Origin: a virus
Lineage: Duplodnaviria > Caudoviricetes
IMG/VR virus record: IMGVR_UViG_3300042397_000935
Span: 1 to 55,230 of that record
Strand: one strand, 5' to 3'
Length of the DNA stretch: 55,230 nt
In this document: one piece after another, positions 1 through 55,025 of the stretch
Position numbering within the stretch: the stretch's first letter is position 1
Layout: the number at the start of each line of letters is the position of its first letter
Program-made: the position numbers and the translations under genes
Notes under the pieces: generated by a model
What the model saw: the letters and a program-made list of their open reading frames with translations, nothing else
Databases searched by the model: none
What the model was told of the DNA's origin: nothing

Positions 1-878
1 CCTTGAACACCCTGTGCACCACGTGATCCAGTAAATCCAATTGCACCTTGTGCTCCAACAGAACCTGTAAACCCGGCATTGTTTGACCAATAAACAGCTG
101 TGCCATTTGACACAAGAGCCTGACCAGAAGTACCTAGCGAACCATTTGCATAGATCGAATTTGCATAAAGTGTATTGGCTTGGAAGTCGGCAATCTTAAA
201 GCTGGCGTTTGCAGTATCAATAAATGTTGAAGTATCCGGCTCTGGTAGATAGCTATCAAAGACTTTGTATCGGCCATCGGTTGCATCACGGAAGAATCCG
301 GTGTGATGATATGTTCCGTCGTTGTATCCGGCAGCAAACCCGATGTCTGGATTGATATCTGTCTTACCACGAGCAGTACCACCTGATACATATGTAGCTG
401 TATTAGTATTAGCAACAGTAAAGTGAGTGGCATTTGCAGTTAGAATATTTGTATAAGTTCCATTATAAGAACTTGGGTCTACCGCAGTAACATATACGTC
501 CCAACCAGAAGAATAGTTATTATTGGCAGTAAATGTAACAACAGAACCATTACCAGAAACGTTTGTAATAGTAGCAAGAACGCCTTGGTTCAGATACAAC
601 ATACTGTCAGTAATTGACAGGTTATTACCAGAGATACTAATAGACGCACCGGTAACTTGAAGGTTACCACCGATTGTAACATCACCTGAAACATTCAACG
701 ATGCAAGATTTGCACCAACTTCAAATGCAACTGATCCGTTCGAGGAGTATACTTTTTTATCAGTAAGATTAACCGCAAACTCGCCGGCATCAATGAATGA
801 TGTATTACCAGAGTTTGTAGTATTTGGAGTACGACCTGAAATAGTCGTACGTTTCATCTGAAACTTATTATTTGCCAT
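1..878 (-). CDS. Tail fibre protein with collagen-like GxTGS repeats (runs off left edge; not in ORF track)
   Basis: Manual translation from ATG 878: MANNKFQMKRTTISGRTP...GEFAVNLTDKK...GFFRDATDGRYKVF...GFTGSVGAQGAIGFTGSRGAQGVQG. Open to position 1 and paralogous to 4476..5894. RBS GGAG and a late promoter lie upstream. Confidence 0.8.
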   Translation of the reverse strand, partial: MANNKFQMKRTTISGRTPNTTNSGNTSFIDAGEFAVNLTDKKVYSSNGSVAFEVGANLASLNVSGDVTIGGNLQVTGASISISGNNLSITDSMLYLNQGVLATITNVSGNGSVVTFTANNNYSSGWDVYVTAVDPSSYNGTYTNILTANATHFTVANTNTATYVSGGTARGKTDINPDIGFAAGYNDGTYHHTGFFRDATDGRYKVFDSYLPEPDTSTFIDTANASFKIADFQANTLYANSIYANGSLGTSGQALVSNGTAVYWSNNAGFTGSVGAQGAIGFTGSRGAQGVQ

Positions 879-923
879 ATGGCTCCCCGACGCAGATATA
901 TATCTTTACAGTACACTATTTAG

Positions 924-952
924 TGTACATTATTCTTAGTTTTATTTATAAT
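924..952 (+). promoter_or_regulatory. Early-type promoter TGTACA-N17-TATAAT for the glycosyltransferase operon
   Basis: TGTACA 924-929, 17-nt spacer, TATAAT 947-952; same architecture as eight other sites in the window. Confidence 0.7.
943..950 (-). promoter_or_regulatory. T4-type late promoter TATAAATA
   Basis: Exact consensus 65 nt upstream of the fibre gene start at 878. Confidence 0.75.
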
Positions 953-958
953 GGAAAC

Positions 959-3055
959 ATGATGAAGATTGCATTTATAGACACATTAGGCCTTACTTAT
1001 GATGGGTCAACTCTTGAGAAGAGAGGACTTGGCGGATCAGAATCTGCTGTCATTCGCATGGCACAAGAACTCACTAAAATTGGATTTGATGTTACGGTCT
1101 ACAATGACTGTGAGTCTGACGATTCGGTTCCTGGGATCCACGGCGATGTGCTTTACTCCCCTCTTAGTGCAGCGAATCGAGCGACACGGCAACACGATGT
1201 CTGTATCGTATCTCGATCGGTTAAGCCAATTGCAGAAGATTGGTCAGTAGTGGCTAATGCTAAGCATGTCTGCCTCTGGATGCATGATACATTCTGTGAA
1301 GGTGATAATCAGATTGAGACACTGATTAATCAAGGCAAACTCCAAGAAATATTTACACTTTCAGATTGGCACACAGGATATGTTACTCACTGTGACCATG
1401 GTGTACGTCGCAACTTTGATATCCTAAAGAATCATATCTTTCAGACACGTAATGGCATTGGCAATATGAATCCTGGTTGGATTGATGTCCGAGACAAAGA
1501 TCCCAATCTGTTCGTGTTTAATGCATCTGTTACCAAGGGAATGGTACCACTTGTCAAACAGATCTGGCCAAAGGTCAAGGCGCGTATACCAACTGCTAAA
1601 CTTAAGATTGTCGGCGGATACTATAAGTTCCGTGAGGCAGCAGAACCGGATCAGCAACAAAAAGACTGGACCGAGATGATGCTGCAATATGGTGGAGACA
1701 TTGAATTCACCGGTGTTATCACACAGCAGGAGATCTCTGACATCCTGCGCAAAGCCAGTTACATGATTTATCCGGTCGGTTTCCCAGAGACATTTGGCAT
1801 CTCTACACTAGAGGCATTGGCACATAATGTTCCGCTTATCACATGCCGGTTTGGTGCTCTTGAAGAGACTGCAATAGATCTGGCATCATGGAAGATTAAC
1901 TATCCTGTTGAACCGAACTGGGCACTCCCATGGCTTAATCAAGATTCGCAGGTTGACATCTTTGTCGACATGGTTGTACAAGCTTATAATACTCCATATC
2001 TTCACCAACAAAAGATGTATGCTTGCAACCAAGTCAAAGATATTTGTACATGGGACACGGTTGCTTTGCAATGGAAGCAACATCTTTATAAGAAACTTGG
2101 CGAGTATATGCCGATCGATCAGTATCGTAAGACACAGAAGATTAATTCCAAGGTCCGTAAAGTATTCAATCGTCGGTTCATGAATGCAGAGGAGTTTTAT
2201 GTTCCTCATCAATCAAATCATAACTGGATCTATGTTATAACCCCGGTCTATAATGCAGAGAAGTATATCAAACGATGCATGGAGTCTGTTGTTTCTCAAG
2301 ACTACAACAACTACCATATGTTCATTGTAGATGACGCGTCTACTGATAATACTCGACAGGTTATAGATGAATATCTAAAAAGTCTTTCTGAGGATCTTAG
2401 ATCTAAGATCAGTGTCGAGACTAACAAAGAGAACATGGGAGCAGTTTATAACCAGATAAACACTATTAGCCACGAGTGCGGCAATGGTATTGTCATGCTT
2501 CTAGACGGTGACGATTGGTTAGTAAACGATCCGAACATCTTCCATACCTATAACCAGGTATACAATGATGGCGCTGAGTTTACATATGGTTCGTGTTGGT
2601 CAGTAGTAGATAACATTCCGCTTATATCACAAGAATATCCGCCTGAAGTAAAGGCGAATAAAACATATCGTAATTATAAGTTCAATTGGAATATGCCGTA
2701 CACGCACCTAAGAACATTTAGATCTTATCTGATGCATAACTTTCTACATGACTATTGCTATAGTCCGTTCAAGGATGACAATGATAACTGGTTAAGGGCC
2801 GGCGGAGATACCGCGGTGTTCTATGCTATGATCGAGTATGCCGACCCAGATAAGGTTATATGTATTTCTGATATTATGTACAACTATAATGACGCAAACC
2901 CACTTAATGATTATAAGGTTAATGCAGAAGAACAAAATAAGACGGCTGAACAAGTTATCAGTGCTCACATCAGACAAGAAAGTGAAAGAATTATTATAGA
3001 AACATTATTCCCTGCACCTTTTACTCCTGGACAGATTGATTTGAGACCGTTATGA
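959..3055 (+). CDS. Bifunctional glycosyltransferase (GT4-like GT-B fused to GT2 GT-A)
   Basis: N-half has GLGGSE and ETFGISTLEA (E-x7-E). C-half has VITPVYNAEKYI, VDDASTD and LLDGDDWL. Start moved from 872 to ATG 959/962, just after the promoter. Confidence 0.88.
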   Translation: MMKIAFIDTLGLTYDGSTLEKRGLGGSESAVIRMAQELTKIGFDVTVYNDCESDDSVPGIHGDVLYSPLSAANRATRQHDVCIVSRSVKPIAEDWSVVANAKHVCLWMHDTFCEGDNQIETLINQGKLQEIFTLSDWHTGYVTHCDHGVRRNFDILKNHIFQTRNGIGNMNPGWIDVRDKDPNLFVFNASVTKGMVPLVKQIWPKVKARIPTAKLKIVGGYYKFREAAEPDQQQKDWTEMMLQYGGDIEFTGVITQQEISDILRKASYMIYPVGFPETFGISTLEALAHNVPLITCRFGALEETAIDLASWKINYPVEPNWALPWLNQDSQVDIFVDMVVQAYNTPYLHQQKMYACNQVKDICTWDTVALQWKQHLYKKLGEYMPIDQYRKTQKINSKVRKVFNRRFMNAEEFYVPHQSNHNWIYVITPVYNAEKYIKRCMESVVSQDYNNYHMFIVDDASTDNTRQVIDEYLKSLSEDLRSKISVETNKENMGAVYNQINTISHECGNGIVMLLDGDDWLVNDPNIFHTYNQVYNDGAEFTYGSCWSVVDNIPLISQEYPPEVKANKTYRNYKFNWNMPYTHLRTFRSYLMHNFLHDYCYSPFKDDNDNWLRAGGDTAVFYAMIEYADPDKVICISDIMYNYNDANPLNDYKVNAEEQNKTAEQVISAHIRQESERIIIETLFPAPFTPGQIDLRPL

Positions 3056-6515: not shown

Positions 6516-7049
6516 TTAAAACCCTTCTACGGTTGCACTCAGTGATACCGGCGCCGATGCTAAAACTTCTTCGGTAATAGTATTACGCACTTCAGCTTGA
6601 AATTCAACATCATTCGTGCCATTAGTTCCACGACTTACAGACCAAAATGGGCTCGTTGCGCATGATATCCATGTGTCTTCGGCAGAACTCGCACCTTCAA
6701 AATTACCAAAGGTCCGAACAACTTTAATCTGATATTGACCAAGATTTGCTGGATTAAGACAGAGTGAATATGTGTCGCCACTAACGTCACCGCCAACAAA
6801 TATTTTTCCAGTAGAGCTATTGATACCCCATTGCGCCTCGGCATATTCTGAAGCAGTGGCACTAACACTATCAGGATACAAAGTAATATCATCTAAAAAT
6901 CCTACCCAACCACCACTAGTACGTATTTTAGCATTACTAGCATTTTGCCAAAAACCAGCATCGTAATATGCTAATCCACGGTCATCAAGTATAGCATCGT
7001 TTCGATTTACAGCTTTCCAACCTAATGAAGTATAGATGTGTATTGCCAT
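6516..7049 (-). CDS. Hypothetical protein, candidate fibre tip/adhesin
   Basis: TAATG coupling to the collagen-like fibre gene gives start 7049; Trp/Gly-rich N-terminus. Confidence 0.55.
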   Translation of the reverse strand: MAIHIYTSLGWKAVNRNDAILDDRGLAYYDAGFWQNASNAKIRTSGGWVGFLDDITLYPDSVSATASEYAEAQWGINSSTGKIFVGGDVSGDTYSLCLNPANLGQYQIKVVRTFGNFEGASSAEDTWISCATSPFWSVSRGTNGTNDVEFQAEVRNTITEEVLASAPVSLSATVEGF

Positions 7050-8359
7050 TAGATCTGAATCCAAATATCGCCGACAGTTGTTGAACTAGGTTGTGTACCC
7101 TGCACAAACACCTGTCCACCGCTAGTATAACCTGTTGTTACGTGACGTAGAATTGGAGCTGCTGCTGATGCTGCACTTCCTTGTGATCCGGTATACCCCT
7201 GCGGGCCCTGTACGGTACTACCATTTATACCCTGCGAACCAGTGTATCCTTGTGGTCCTTGTACAGTATTACCATTTATACCTTGTGATCCAGTATACCC
7301 CTGCGGGCCCTGTACAGTATTACCATTTATACCCTGCGACCCCGTATACCCCTGTGGTCCCTGTGCACCAGTTGCACCTTGACTTCCAGTGTATCCTTGT
7401 GGTCCCTGTGCACCGGTTGCACCTTGACTTCCAGTGTATCCTTGTGGTCCTTGTGCACCTTGGCTTCCAGTAAACCCTTGAGGTCCTTGTGCACCTTGAC
7501 TTCCAGTGTATCCTTGTGGTCCTTGTGCACCTTGACTTCCAGTAAACCCTTGAGGTCCTTGTGCGCCCTGTGAACCAGTAAACCCTTGTGGTCCTTGCGC
7601 GCCTTGGCTTCCGGTAAATCCTTGAGGTCCTTGGCTTCCAGTAAACCCTTGGGGTCCTTGTGCGCCCTGTGAACCAGTAAACCCTAAAGGCCCTTGTACT
7701 GTTACGCCATTTATACCAGCCGAACCAGTGTATCCTTGCGGTCCTTGTGCACCAATAATGCCTTGAGAACCAGTGAAACCAATAACCCCTTGTGAACCGG
7801 TGAAACCAATAATCCCCTGCGAACCAGTAAATCCTTGGGGTCCTTGTGCACCGATACCGTCAATCCAAGATGCATTAGTTCCATTTGTTTTTAAAAAATA
7901 ACCATTGACAGCTGTGTTTTGTGTTGGTAGTAAGTTGTTTAAACCTTCTGCGCGTGATGAACCATTTGTACCACCTTGGCCGATGTTCAGAACACCATTC
8001 GAGATAGAAGAAGCGTTTACAATCAACCCTGTTGCATTTGCTATGATACCCGATCCAGCACGAATATTAATATTCGTTCCATTAGCAGCAATGATAGAAT
8101 TTGAAAGACTTAAATTGTCTGCAAATACTGTAAATGTTCTTGAGGTATTACCTAAAGCTTTACCATTTGCAGTTGGAATCAAATTACCATCTATAGATGT
8201 ATTACTATATGTAAGGTTTCCAGTAACAGTAAGATCTTTATCAACTGTAAGAGATTCTTTGACAATAACATGAGCATTTACAGTTGCGTTCGCCTGGAAT
8301 AGCGATTCGCCACCTGTTACTAAAAGACCGTTGTCTATTTTAAAATTAGTATTTGCCAT
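7049..8359 (-). CDS. Collagen-like tail fibre/whisker protein
   Basis: About 225 aa of uninterrupted G-X-Y repeats; C-terminal [14 protein letters not shown] motif. Confidence 0.85.
7179..7853 (-). repeat. Coding tandem repeat, 36-45 bp units, GAQGPQG(F/Y)TGSQ
   Basis: Directly visible degenerate repeats such as ccttgtgcaccttgacttccagtgtatccttgtggt. Confidence 0.95.
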
Positions 8360-43444: not shown

Positions 43445-43452
43445 TATTTATA
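43445..43452 (-). promoter_or_regulatory. Late promoter TATAAATA
   Basis: Exact consensus between the tmRNA and the structured leader. Confidence 0.72.
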
Positions 43453-43459
43453 ACACCTT

Positions 43460-43808
43460 GCCAATCAACCCGTAGCATCTATGGTGCAACTGGTAGCAAA
43501 GTGGCCCGTTCTGTTCCAAGGTGGAGCCATACCCGTGTAGATCATGCCGCTAGGCGGATATCTGCAAAGCTATCGTTATCGTTAGCATTTATGTTTAATG
43601 GCACTTTGCCAGGCAATCAGTCTCGAACCGCCCTATTACACGAAAATCGAATTCCAAGGTCACCCCCATCATCTACCAAGCAAACGCGCTCTTGCAACGT
43701 TCAGGGTAGAAGCCTAACCGCATCCCAATGAATGCTTGGTAGATGGTGGAGGTGCGGGGAGTCGAACCCCGGTCTTTCCGCCTTTATTGTTGATTGTCAA
43801 CAACTGAT
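43460..43808 (-). ncRNA. ssrA: Circularly permuted (two-piece) tmRNA gene; outer ends approximate
   Basis: Acceptor piece ~43808-43744 has T-arm CGGGG-TTCGACT-CCCCG and CACCTCC-A-CCA. Intervening segment 43743-43668. Coding piece starts GGGGGTG at 43667, pairing with CACCTCC including a G3:U70 pair. Tag frame 43586-43542 reads ANDNDSFADIRLAA*. Confidence 0.95.
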
Positions 43809-43814
43809 ATACTA

Positions 43815-43853
43815 TATATACAATGTTTTTCTTTAATTGTACACAACTATTTT
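43815..43853 (-). promoter_or_regulatory. Early-type promoter for the tmRNA
   Basis: AAAATAGTTG-TGTACA-N17-TATATA. Confidence 0.7.
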
Positions 43854-46516: not shown

Positions 46517-46555
46517 ATACTACCAAAGTTTTGATAATTTGTACACAACTATTTT
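46517..46555 (-). promoter_or_regulatory. Early-type promoter
   Basis: AAAATAGTTG-TGTACA-N17-TAGTAT. Confidence 0.75.
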
Positions 46556-46840: not shown

Positions 46841-46879
46841 ACAGTACGATGTTTTCGAAATAATGTACACAGTTATTTT
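46841..46879 (-). promoter_or_regulatory. Early-type promoter
   Basis: AAAATAACTG-TGTACA-N17-TACTGT. Confidence 0.68.
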
Positions 46880-46892
46880 CAAAATTATGCAA

Positions 46893-47069
46893 TTATTTTT
46901 TCATTCGTGGAGGAGGTAGTTTCTCTACGTAGGCAAAGGAAACATCAAAGAAGAACTCGATATGGGCAAGACAATATTCTCGCAGTTCCTCTGGACTCAC
47001 ACCAGTCTTCTTGATGTAATTCATGTGAGCAGCTTCGTGCACATCATGAGGGAAGTACCAATCGTTCAT
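46893..47069 (-). CDS. Small protein, 58 aa (not in ORF track)
   Basis: MNDWYFPHDVHEAAHMNYIKK...PPPRMKK*; AAGGA RBS. Confidence 0.65.
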   Translation of the reverse strand: MNDWYFPHDVHEAAHMNYIKKTGVSPEELREYCLAHIEFFFDVSFAYVEKLPPPRMKK

Positions 47070-47134
47070 TGATTCCAGTCCTTATCATCTTTAAACAAAC
47101 GGTTAATAATTCGGTTAATAATACAACGAATCAT
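47066..47134 (-). CDS. Possible 22-aa micropeptide
   Basis: MIRCIINRIINRLFKDDKDWNQ*; AAAGGA RBS; ATGA overlap with the next ORF. Confidence 0.45.
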   Translation of the reverse strand: MIRCIINRIINRLFKDDKDWNQ

Positions 47135-47149
47135 TTGCTTTCCTTTGAA

Positions 47150-47332
47150 TTAAAACGTTATATCAGTTTTAAAGTCCATATCGATACGACGGGTTGCTTT
47201 GACACGGTGCCAGTTAGCATCAAACTTGGCAGATTTAAGGCTGCGATACGTACCCCATACAGATCCGTCATCCTTTGCAATGACCCAGGTTGTCATGCGG
47301 GAGTAACGTAGTTTGTATCTAAAGATATTCAT
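47150..47332 (-). CDS. Hypothetical small early protein
   Basis: 60-aa ORF downstream of an early promoter. Confidence 0.55.
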   Translation of the reverse strand: MNIFRYKLRYSRMTTWVIAKDDGSVWGTYRSLKSAKFDANWHRVKATRRIDMDFKTDITF

Positions 47333-47368
47333 TGTTGTATTATAATCCTATTCACTATTGGTATTACC

Positions 47369-47407
47369 ATTATACACTATTTTGAATTAATGTACACAGT
47401 TTTTTTC
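47369..47407 (-). promoter_or_regulatory. Early-type promoter
   Basis: A-tract-CTG-TGTACA-N16-TATAAT. Confidence 0.72.
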
Positions 47408-47581
47408 AATCCATTCATCACGGAAGTCTTCGTAAAGAAATCCAGCTTCAGCAGCTTCGATAACGTCATCGCCGTTACAGATAGGCCAATCCATATTTGT
47501 ATTTTCCATGATATACTCCATATACTTTTCGTACATGTCATCGTGGGTTTCAAAGAGTTCGTCAAATTGGTCATTAGTCAT
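47387..47581 (-). CDS. Small acidic protein
   Basis: 64 aa, D/E-rich; AGGA RBS. Confidence 0.72.
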   Translation of the reverse strand: MTNDQFDELFETHDDMYEKYMEYIMENTNMDWPICNGDDVIEAAEAGFLYEDFRDEWIEKNCVH

Positions 47582-47601
47582 AATATATTTCCTATTTTTT
47601 A

Positions 47602-47787
47602 TTAAAGGTAGTTTTCGGTTTTAAATTGGTCGAGGGTTTCGGGAGTGGTGAAGGTGATGGTAATTTCGGGATTTCCGGATGGGGTATCGGAGTTATAGTT
47701 AATGTTGGTAATGTGTGGATAGTAAGGTACGAGTGTTTCGAAAATGTTGTGGTTATAATCGAAATCGAAGGTGATGGTGTTAGTCAA
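47602..47787 (-). CDS. 61-aa early protein with G-depleted coding strand (TTG start)
   Basis: AAGGAG 7 nt before TTG 47787; MTNTITFDFDYNHNIFE...GNPEITITF...ENYL*. Confidence 0.72.
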   Translation of the reverse strand: MTNTITFDFDYNHNIFETLVPYYPHITNINYNSDTPSGNPEITITFTTPETLDQFKTENYL

Positions 47788-47813
47788 TGTTTTTCTCCTT
47801 AGCTTATTATCCC

Positions 47814-47842
47814 AGTATACTTTGTTTTTAAAATAATGTACA
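47814..47842 (-). promoter_or_regulatory. Early-type promoter
   Basis: TGTACA-N17-TATACT; leader ATAATAAGCTAAGGAGA identical to the one at ~46500. Confidence 0.72.
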
Positions 47843-47852
47843 TCAAAAAGTG

Positions 47853-47880
47853 AAAAAAAATGCGACCGAAGCCGCATTTT
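47853..47880 (-). terminator. Intrinsic terminator with C(UUCG)G tetraloop
   Basis: Minus strand ATGCGGC-TTCG-GTCGCAT with a T8 run, right after the exonuclease stop. Confidence 0.88.
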
Positions 47881-47881
47881 C

Positions 47882-48565
47882 TTATTGGTCATGATAGGCT
47901 CGACAAAGAGCCGCTGCTTTCCCAAGGTACTCTCGAGGCTTGACGATAAAGACCTGAGGATGTGTTTCCTCCTCAACGGCTATAATGACGACACACTGTT
48001 TGGCCATCATGCCAGTCATCTCCCATAACATGTACGAGTAGAGAACCGTCTGTAGGAAGTAGGATTCAATCCATTCCCTCATCTTGTTCTTAGACGATGT
48101 CTTGTAGTCAATGATCGATAGTACACCATCATACAATGCAATCAAGTCACAAGATCCAGCAATCTTAAGTTCATCGGATACCAGTGTCAACTCACATCCT
48201 ACGATGTCATCAACATGTTCATCTAAGACCTTCTTGATCTGATTGAACATGTAAGCATTGAAAGGCATACTAAGGTCCACATCCTCACCACGAACATAGC
48301 TTTCGCACATGTTGTGGACGTTAGTACCTCGTGTAGCAGCCAACCGACTAACTCGATCAGCTTCTTCATCACCTACCCGTGCACGCCACTCATCAAGACC
48401 GGACTTATCCAGCATCTTGCCGAGGACAGTCGTGACTGACGGATAGCTTCCATTAGGAGTTACATAGTGACGGATACCGTTGATCTCCTCCCGTGGGAAG
48501 TGATCGAATTCATCCTGATACCAAGTGAATTCTTTAGGGTTGGAGACCGAGTTTTTGACGAGCAA
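47882..48565 (-). CDS. PD-(D/E)xK (Cas4-like) exonuclease
   Basis: YPSVTTVL, RGTNVH, AGSCDLI, IIDYKTS, YFLQ; adjacent to phoH as in T4-like phages. Confidence 0.87.
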   Translation of the reverse strand: MLVKNSVSNPKEFTWYQDEFDHFPREEINGIRHYVTPNGSYPSVTTVLGKMLDKSGLDEWRARVGDEEADRVSRLAATRGTNVHNMCESYVRGEDVDLSMPFNAYMFNQIKKVLDEHVDDIVGCELTLVSDELKIAGSCDLIALYDGVLSIIDYKTSSKNKMREWIESYFLQTVLYSYMLWEMTGMMAKQCVVIIAVEEETHPQVFIVKPREYLGKAAALCRAYHDQ

Positions 48566-53499: not shown

Positions 53500-53850
53500 T
53501 CACGCTACCCATTCCCTCTCGGAGAACCCGATGATCGAGTCATACCGGAACGAACGCCATCCTTGTGCTTCAAGATCCCACACTGCCAGAACATCTGGGT
53601 TTGGAGTCTTTTTCTGTACTGCTTCTTCAAGATCAGTTTGAGCCGGAAGTAAATTTGCATTTAATGTGCAAACCATTGTACGCTCTGTACCATCTTTCTT
53701 TATAAAAACAACACTCAAAACTGAAGCCTTTAATGTTGTTTTAAGGTACTCATTCCGCCAGGAAGTTTCGTCCTGCGTCTGTGTTGAGCCATTCTGTAAG
53801 TTTATCGAATCCACCAATTTCATCTCCATTAATAATAATATGTGGTACAC
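53500..53850 (-). CDS. SH3/WYL-like beta-barrel protein (DUF2693-like); true start probably ~53815-53829
   Basis: FIKKDGTERTMVCTL...VWDLEAQGWRSFR. Confidence 0.78.
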   Translation of the reverse strand: MYHILLLMEMKLVDSINLQNGSTQTQDETSWRNEYLKTTLKASVLSVVFIKKDGTERTMVCTLNANLLPAQTDLEEAVQKKTPNPDVLAVWDLEAQGWRSFRYDSIIGFSEREWVA

Positions 53851-54291: not shown

Positions 54292-54639
54292 TTAACTAAC
54301 TATAACACCAATTAGATATAATGTACACAAAATTATTAAGACTGTGCTAAACTTTATCGGTTTGGTTTTTTTGATTTTAATTGTTTTAGGTTTTTTTGGT
54401 TTTAAAGTTTTTTGTTTAGGAGCACTAAGACTTTTTCTAGAAACCCAACCATCTGCAGTGCGTTGTGTAAGATAACTCTTACGTTCACCAGTATTCAGAT
54501 TTGTTGTGGTTGTAACTCTTGAATACTTATTACCGCTACTAGTTGAAACTTTAGAAGATCTTTTAGGCCCTTTAAACGACTGTGTATTCGTGGTACGTGT
54601 ACCATTCTTTCCACTTTTAGTAGTTCTTTTAAACGGCAT
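54292..54639 (-). CDS. Lys/Thr/Ser-rich basic protein with C-terminal membrane anchor
   Basis: 115 aa; TAATG-coupled to the speD-like gene; hydrophobic tail. Confidence 0.65.
   Translation of the reverse strand: MPFKRTTKSGKNGTRTTNTQSFKGPKRSSKVSTSSGNKYSRVTTTTNLNTGERKSYLTQRTADGWVSRKSLSAPKQKTLKPKKPKTIKIKKTKPIKFSTVLIILCTLYLIGVIVS
54299..54327 (-). promoter_or_regulatory. Early-type promoter within the 3' end of an ORF
   Basis: GTG-context TGTACA-N17-TATAGT. Confidence 0.6.
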
Positions 54640-55025
54640 TACAATACTTTAGTATCGATGAGAGTCAGACCATGCTCTCTGTCAATATACTTATATTCAA
54701 CCTTTATAGGTTCCCATTCCTGAATAGATTCAAACACCTGATTAATATCCAGATGACTACATGTATATACATCTAGTTGCATAAGTGCCGGTTCGGCCTC
54801 ATCCCATACGTGAAGAGCAATATGACTTGTCTCGATGATGGTTACAGCAGTCAGACCCTGATTGCCTTCCATATCAGAATAGACGGCATAAGGTCCCATA
54901 AGAACGTTCATCCCGATCTTGTCAACAAGATGTTTCATCCACAACTTAATTTCGTGTGGTGAATAAGGTGGTTCTTTTAGTTCAGCTCTGACGATCAGAT
55001 GCTTATGTTCTAGTATGCTGCCCAC
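54639..55025 (-). CDS. speD: S-adenosylmethionine decarboxylase-like pyruvoyl proenzyme
   Basis: HKHLIV, GLTAVTIIETSHIALHVW (self-cleavage Ser), QLDVYTCS. Confidence 0.85.
   Translation of the reverse strand: MGSILEHKHLIVRAELKEPPYSPHEIKLWMKHLVDKIGMNVLMGPYAVYSDMEGNQGLTAVTIIETSHIALHVWDEAEPALMQLDVYTCSHLDINQVFESIQEWEPIKVEYKYIDREHGLTLIDTKVL

Follow-up and report, generated by a model that had tools for sequence, protein, structure and literature searches.

The gene and its cassette

The window, by which we mean the whole stretch of DNA that was analysed, is the entire IMG/VR record IMGVR_UViG_3300042397_000935 (55,230 bp). It represents, by estimate, about 30% of the genome of a T4-like myovirus: It carries the baseplate genes gp6, gp8, gp53, gp5 and a gp48-like gene as well as genes for gp32, gp59, RNase H and PhoH. 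The gp32 protein is 65% identical to the gp32s of cyanomyoviruses, and gp6 is about 36% identical to the gp6 proteins of T4-like phages of Caulobacter, Sinorhizobium and Methylophilales. The gene studied here is a small ORF on the minus strand that lies in the following setting:

47883..47854, minus strand: terminator-like hairpin with a T-run, which closes the upstream nuclease gene
47842..47814, minus strand: promoter-like TGTACA-17 nt-TATACT with 9 of the 12 sigma-70 consensus positions, assigned by consensus match only
47800..47795, minus strand: Shine-Dalgarno-like AAGGAG, 7 nt before the TTG start, likewise assigned by consensus match only
47602..47787, minus strand: ORF of 61 codons with a TTG start and a TAA stop; G 6.5% and C 34% on the coding strand
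47593..47785, minus strand: run of 193 nt free of AG and TG on the mRNA strand, from just after the start codon to 9 nt beyond the stop
47387..47581, minus strand: next cistron, 20 nt after the stop, for a very acidic protein of 64 residues; G 21.5%, ordinary composition
46517..46545, 46841..46869, 47369..47396 and 47814..47842, minus strand: repeated promoter-like units with the palindromic TGTACA as a -35-like hexamer, preceding successive small ORFs

The first-pass annotation had described the gene as the first one behind a promoter and a ribosome-binding site, and candidates for both signals could be located in the form of the two consensus matches. The pattern TGTACA-N15-18-TANNNT is found 16 times in the window as compared to 3.9 +/- 2.1 times in shuffled sequences. 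Moreover, the promoter-like site, the Shine-Dalgarno motif and the start are all conserved ahead of the gene in the homologous loci, and the hairpin precedes the gene in the 13 homologous loci examined. Judged by sequence features, the hairpin and the promoter-like site together appear to form a cassette of the PeSL (promoter-early stem-loop) type, an arrangement that PMC4122927 outlines for the plastic regions of T4-type genomes. As in PeSL cassettes, a stem-loop terminator, a sigma-70-like promoter and a Shine-Dalgarno sequence are followed by the start of a small ORF, and the gene sits where the adjoining small genes vary between relatives. In contrast to PeSL cassettes as described, the -35-like hexamer is TGTACA, and the part of the description in PMC4122927 on which we draw contains no exclusion of dinucleotides from an ORF. 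A search of Rfam gave nothing at gathering score within the gene. A sub-threshold hit to STnc130, an enterobacterial sRNA, covers the terminator and the promoter (47754..47887, plus strand; 35.8 bits as compared to a gathering score of 55, E = 0.0012) and is probably just the hairpin.

The neighbours on both sides of the gene differ among the homologous IMG/VR loci, and the cistron at 47387..47581 accompanies the gene in only some relatives. In many loci, the next cassette's own promoter directly follows the stop codon of the gene. Five sequencing runs gave small shares (0.05-0.06), and the contigs from four of them represent relatives that are about 88% alike and are most probably DNA despite their RNA labels. 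In these contigs, position 46888 is joined to position 47606 with 717 nt being skipped, and the three small genes downstream of the gene under study (46889..47605) are missing. This junction and the variable downstream neighbours fit cassette shuffling.

Further features of the contig are the following:

872..3055: fused GT1+GT2 glycosyltransferase
7049..8359: collagen-repeat protein
43542..43805, minus strand: permuted two-piece tmRNA (ARAGORN 43451..43839); Rfam tmRNA_permuted 89.6 bits (gathering 47), alpha_tmRNA 56.2 bits
45353..46300: DUF932 protein
53500..53850: WYL_2 protein
54639..55025: S-adenosylmethionine decarboxylase domain

The permuted tmRNA, for which ARAGORN gives the tag peptide ANDNDSFADIRLAA, hints at a host that has a permuted tmRNA itself, and ribosomes may have to be rescued in the infected cell.

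Composition of the gene and selection on its coding strand

The 186 nt of the coding strand of 47602..47787 consist of 65 A, 63 C, 46 T and only 12 G. The dinucleotides AG and GC do not occur at all and TG is present once, in the TTG start codon; CG occurs ten times and GG once, and there are ten GA, seven ACA and 36 YC. The start codon is the sole G-ending codon of the gene, and each of the ten G-starting codons is preceded by a C-ending codon. The protein contains no Ala, Arg, Cys or Trp and no internal Met, and ATG, GTG and TTG are absent from every frame downstream of the start codon. All counts of the first-pass annotation (12 G in 186 nt, no AG or GC, TG only in the start codon, G-starting codons after C-ending ones) were thus reproduced, and its view that the composition of the gene differs from that of its neighbours can be extended to the whole contig, of which the gene is the extreme both in sliding windows of 186 nt and in dinucleotide statistics. 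The C count of the plus strand in such windows has a mean of 38.5 (sd 6.6) and reaches its minimum of 11 at the gene, with the next distinct region at 18, and the G count of the plus strand is also maximal at the gene (64). The 47 other ORFs of the contig have 15.8-28.1% G on their coding strands. The gap between two AG or TG dinucleotides is 7.7 nt on average, and the next longest stretch free of both on either strand of the contig has 71 nt as compared to the 193 nt at the gene. Finally, the fraction of C at third codon positions is 0.55 in the gene and 0.18 in the contig. The compositional observation is therefore real, and it is stronger than first noted.

The ORF is a genuine translated gene, and its sense frame is under purifying selection. 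Homologs are present at 38 IMG/VR loci (62-98% identity), and the 37 full-length copies of what we call family 1 represent 20 distinct nucleotide sequences. Pairwise pN/pS values are 0.14-0.43 in the sense frame, as compared to 0.79-12.6 in the codon-complement frame of the antisense strand. These antisense values also speak against a real gene on the opposite strand, a possibility that we have dismissed: The frame on the antisense strand stays open in 18 of the 20 family-1 sequences but in only one out of seven sequences of the second family described below. The protein family is tiny, with two clusters among 1.84 billion protein representatives. The product is a small acidic protein for which AlphaFold2 predicts a beta-alpha-beta-beta-alpha fold (pLDDT 86.4). 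Neither Pfam nor PHROG gave a hit, the ESM Atlas gave no usable one, and Foldseek searches of PDB and BFVD with the model returned no match at E<=0.001. The best structural match (VIA Z 6.4, rmsd 3.1 over 61 residues) is to generic ACT/RRM-like domains. Similarly, megablast and tblastn searches of the INPHARED phage records with the gene found no match.

The coding strand is under selection at two levels, the choice of amino acids and the choice among synonymous codons. At the level of the protein, only 10 of 60 residues force a G into the coding strand, as compared to 24.3 +/- 4.3 in 60-residue windows of the proteins encoded on the contig; 10 or fewer such residues are found in 0.012% of the 16,662 windows. 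The residues that replace each other among the homologs are likewise G-free. At the level of codons, we kept the protein fixed and recoded the gene with the codon usage of the contig. Under these conditions, 18.3 G are expected, and the observed 12 are the minimum possible (P(G<=12) = 0.00075); the expected number of C is 41.9, and the observed 63 were reached in none of 100,000 recodings; AG and TG together are expected 10.5 +/- 1.9 times and observed 0 times, with a minimum of 3 in 50,000 recodings. The placement of G after C at codon junctions is significant in a synonymous shuffle within the gene (p = 0.0099). In the 19 other unique homologs the corresponding p values range from 0.017 to 0.92, the high values being due to the very high C content at third positions. 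In all 38 homologs AG is absent, and there are 4 to 17 G per ORF. At the 51 synonymously variable sites of family 1, where pS reaches 0.5-0.7, the variants are C at 51 sites, T at 49, A at 11 and G at none. Thus, AG and UG are kept out of the early-cassette gene that this T4-like phage carries; the gene resorts to G only if the amino acid sequence requires it and then places it behind C, and C is the preferred base at synonymous sites. The proposal of the first-pass annotation that selection acts at the nucleotide level is supported by the depletion in 38 out of 38 IMG/VR homologs, by the synonymous sites with the protein held fixed, and by the recurrence of the pattern in an unrelated family.

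A second family with the same dinucleotide rule

This second family is absent from the window and was found by scanning larger relatives of the contig:

L099:5091-5315 (corresponding to G002:65088..65330), minus strand in L099: family-2 cassette ORF of 75-88 aa, starting with MYTIQYFD; also in L105-L116, 12 loci

The two families share the type of cassette. They are not distant paralogs, a relationship that was rejected since hhalign gives a probability of 0.9% and their fold searches have no hits in common; their predicted topologies are loosely alike, and both are small alpha/beta folds. Family 2 has an ordinary amino acid composition and 6-14% G (16-32 G per ORF). AG occurs 0 to 2 times, TG is found only within ATG, TGG and TGT, and CG holds 12 to 22 of the 16 to 32 G. 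All Arg codons are CGN, and the codons for Lys, Glu and Gln end with A except for one CAG. Avoidable G-ending codons are few in both families and nearly all of them are NCG or CGG; in family 2, they are limited to TCG, ACG, CGG and the single CAG. Between 11 of 11 and 18 of 19 G-starting codons follow a C-ending codon (p = 0.0004-0.02 in synonymous shuffles of seven sequences), and AG and TG add up to 2-4 observed as compared to 19-27 expected occurrences, with none of 50,000 recodings reaching the observed value in six out of seven tests. Relative to base composition, the odds in families 1 and 2 are 0.00 and 0.05 for AG, 0.12 and 0.54 for TG, and 2.36 and 2.32 for CG, and only these three dinucleotides are far from 1. 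These data show that the rule concerns dinucleotides rather than G content. The remark of the first-pass annotation that the few guanines follow C has turned out to be the actual rule, valid inside codons and across codon junctions. Since family 2 obeys it across junctions as well, the constraint does not depend on the reading frame, and the nucleic acid is the level at which it acts.

As a side aspect, the +1 frame of the gene is open over 58-61 codons in all 20 family-1 sequences, and a +1 frame of 68-86 codons is open in family 2. This is probably a by-product of the lack of TAG and TGA and of the small number of NTA codons.

The pattern is rare. We scanned the window and the records G001-G003 for stretches of 150 nt with at most 4 AG plus TG (mean about 19), and G004-G008 with a threshold of 5. 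In the window and G001-G003, only the two families were found; in G004-G008, one additional stretch appeared, in G007, and it is antisense to a K/R/G-rich ORF. Beyond the two families there is thus no further case on a sense strand in about 500 kb of this phage clade. Neither T4 nor the Caulobacter phage Cr30 has a sense-strand equivalent: Cr30 contains no such window and T4 a single one, antisense to gene 38, and the longest stretch free of AG and TG in the 325 kb of both genomes measures 79 nt. The other skewed or AG/TG-poor windows that we considered are ordinary, i.e. a gene for a membrane protein, the antisense strands of purine-rich genes, T4 gene 38, Cr30 gp079 and the K/R/G-rich ORF of G007, and a weak profile hit in Cr30 was discarded as it is antisense to an annotated gene. 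A loose search of IMG/VR for the promoter plus Shine-Dalgarno pattern returned 119 loci (1.09 Mb) that are mostly unrelated contigs; they contain many AG/TG-poor windows, counted regardless of the coding strand, in very AT-rich or pyrimidine-rich DNA. Full-text searches of the literature revealed no description of genes that exclude AG and UG in this way.

Nature of the selective agent

The rule operates inside codons and across their junctions, it ends at the ends of the ORF, and it is common to an unrelated gene in the same type of cassette. The selective agent therefore most likely acts on the mRNA. The explanation that we favour, tentatively and as possible rather than probable, is that both messages escape an activity which targets RNA and depends on a G with A or U in front of it. 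Such an activity would be present early in infection, and it might be a defence or toxin ribonuclease of the host, an RNA-modifying enzyme, or the phage's own shut-off nuclease. The family-1 and family-2 messages would escape it, their proteins would still be made, and these proteins could have a role in counter-defence. An anti-phage effector able to read a mere dinucleotide on mRNA has a counterpart in the CmdTAC defence system: According to the account in 10.1101/2024.02.24.581662, CmdT ADP-ribosylates the adenine in GA of single-stranded mRNA and blocks T-even phages. CmdT itself is not the agent, since GA is kept ten times in the gene (odds 2.2) and is neither absent nor depleted in family 1 or family 2 (odds of 2.21 and 1.36, respectively). 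The permuted two-piece tmRNA on the contig would be compatible with heavy mRNA truncation in infected cells.

Several points weigh against escape from an A/U-G-reading activity. None of the enzymes that were checked (RelE, CmdT) fits, and we know of no enzyme with A/U-G specificity. The escape from a nuclease alone leaves the preference for C at those third positions that do not precede a G unexplained. Moreover, as only two genes per phage follow the rule, every other phage message would remain exposed. Finally, the Shine-Dalgarno sequences and the start codons of both genes contain AG and UG.

The agents that the first-pass annotation had considered are not supported by the data. A RelE-type escape would seem to be suggested by the lack of NNG codons after the start, yet E. 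coli RelE, the yardstick used here, cleaves preferentially between a C and a following G, with NNC codons being cut behind their third base; the ten junctions at which C is followed by G are therefore preferred RelE sites rather than safe ones. Known mRNA interferases recognize short motifs, ACA in the case of MazF and GCU in the case of MqsR, and messages that lack the motif escape. An escape of the MqsR type is not a trait of the family, since GC is present in 15 of the 38 homologs and GCT (GCU in the mRNA) in the L019 group (8 loci), and MazF was rejected because of the seven ACA in the gene. Sequences that escape from MazF, MqsR or restriction resemble the gene in that a short motif has been purged so that a sequence-specific enzyme cannot act; they differ from it as here two dinucleotides, AG and UG, have been purged, with a general minimum of G and a surplus of C in addition. 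An anti-defence role of the kind that the first-pass annotation had in mind is that of T4 Dmd, an immediate-early antitoxin of about 60 residues against the ribonucleases RnlA and LsoA. The gene product studied here would resemble Dmd in its small size and in being among the first to be made when a T4-type phage infects. We found no link in sequence or fold between the family-1 protein and Dmd, and since T4 has no sense-strand window free of AG and UG, the dmd gene does not use this device.

Among the other explanations, we first consider that the gene might be a "clean" message for maximal expression, one that is devoid of folding, binding of 30S subunits and internal starts and that relies on rapidly translated NNC and NNA codons for a quick supply of the first protein of the infection. 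Among all stretches of 189 nt on the contig, that of the gene is indeed the one with the least structure (MFE -10.0 as compared to -41.2 +/- 8.3), with only one of 734 windows, which overlaps the gene, being as weakly folded; there are no NUG triplets after the start and no AG-containing Shine-Dalgarno-like runs, and in other early and replication genes, too, Phe, Tyr, Asn, His and Asp tend to be encoded by C-ending codons (0.47-0.76). However, synonymous shuffling does not increase the structure relative to the native sequences (fractions of 0.07-0.96 in eight family-1 and of 0.58-0.90 in five family-2 sequences), G-minimal recodings fold similarly weakly (-11.4 +/- 2.7, with 29% as weak as the native gene), and family 2 is not free of structure (MFE -15 to -38). 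Thus, the avoidance of structure explains neither the junction rule nor the surplus of C. In addition, GGA, the core of the Shine-Dalgarno sequence, is retained in family 1, whereas the harmless CUG, CAG and AAG are avoided as well. The neighbouring early and replication genes favour G-ending codons for Lys, Glu and Gln (0.6-0.73) while the gene uses them in 0 of 6 cases, and codon optimisation was for this reason rejected as the main cause. Taking both sides into account, we consider a message shaped by expression alone unlikely.

An element for the loading of Rho that extends over the ORF is still less probable. In this scenario, Rho would stop transcription when the gene is untranslated, or it would be titrated by the RNA. 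In the outline given in PMC2988021, rut sites are unstructured, sometimes C-rich and masked by ribosomes inside ORFs, and the read-through from early to delayed-early genes of T4 is sensitive to Rho. The gene resembles a rut site, i.e. a C-rich, G-poor and unstructured RNA of 80 nt or more, as it has 34% C, 6.5% G and 36 YC over 186 nt of weakly folded RNA (MFE -10). The differences are that the stretch is located wholly inside a well-translated ORF and that the AG/UG and junction rules are not features of rut sites: Loading of Rho predicts neither the exclusion of AG and UG nor the C before G at junctions, and family 2 has 6-14% G. With the next cassette's own promoter right behind the stop codon in many loci, the control of polarity would have little to act on. 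Moreover, some of the candidate hosts, namely cyanobacteria, are not known to possess Rho, and this would count against the rut reading.

We assign a similarly low probability to a cause in the DNA of the template strand, be it a base modification that depends on the context, an enzyme specific for single strands or a mutation pressure that is local and context-specific, with the pattern in the RNA being its mirror image. The rule can be restated accordingly as the absence of CA and CT from the template strand, where C is present only as CG, and G-specific toxins that act on single-stranded DNA exist among phage defences, as with DarT1, for which no consensus motif was found according to PMC11543638. 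Against a cause in the DNA, it can be said that the limits of the stretch free of AG and TG follow those of the ORF, that a mutation pressure would need to strike two short ORFs but leave their neighbours alone, and that such a cause alone cannot provide each remaining G with a preceding C under conservation of the protein. Homologs of thymidylate synthase/dCMP hydroxymethylase, of C5-methylases and of TGT/DpdA were not found in four fragments from the clade, which is weak evidence as the fragments are 30-63% complete. Similarly, RegB was not found in four fragmentary records of the clade.

The two weakest explanations can be treated briefly. It is very improbable that the pattern is a by-product of an odd amino acid composition and of codon bias without a function at the nucleotide level: The amino acid sequence alone does lower the expected G from about 37 to 18.3 per 186 nt, but the values for G, C and AG plus TG all fall beyond or at the limit of what 50,000-100,000 recodings yielded with the protein fixed, the replacement residues of the homologs are G-free, and family 2 follows the same rule with its ordinary composition; the recodings and family 2 thus bring this explanation close to refutation. 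Just as improbable is a natural "G-less cassette" whose transcription would continue under a shortage of GTP, the other idea of the first-pass annotation, which agrees with the 12 G of the ORF being the minimum allowed by the protein but predicts no dependence on the 5' neighbour, whereas family 2 keeps the AG/UG rule with its 16-32 G per ORF, and the leader, the Shine-Dalgarno sequence and the promoter-proximal RNA contain G.

Coming back to the escape from an RNA activity that reads A/U-G, it is conceivable, although doubtful, that early messages without AG and UG are privileged and stay translatable while an immune effector or a shut-off nuclease of the phage destroys or disables all others. 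Motifs are known to be purged as a means of evading sequence-specific enzymes in the case of restriction sites and of a few messages that resist toxins. The present case differs in that the rule concerns dinucleotides and disregards the reading frame, that it is confined to single early genes, and that it has been held by two unrelated protein families through saturating synonymous change. If such privileged messages exist, the rule would point to an RNA enzyme of freshwater or marine bacteria that is specific for a dinucleotide and as yet undescribed, as well as to small proteins that counter this enzyme, and a scan for ORFs free of AG and UG on the sense strand would be a route to counter-defence genes that relies on composition alone. 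Such a scan could reveal further genes of this class irrespective of homology information. If the agent is a defence, both orphan proteins are prime candidates for counter-defence; if it is not, the two genes still represent an unusually clean case of selection that goes beyond codon usage and concerns the sequence of an mRNA.
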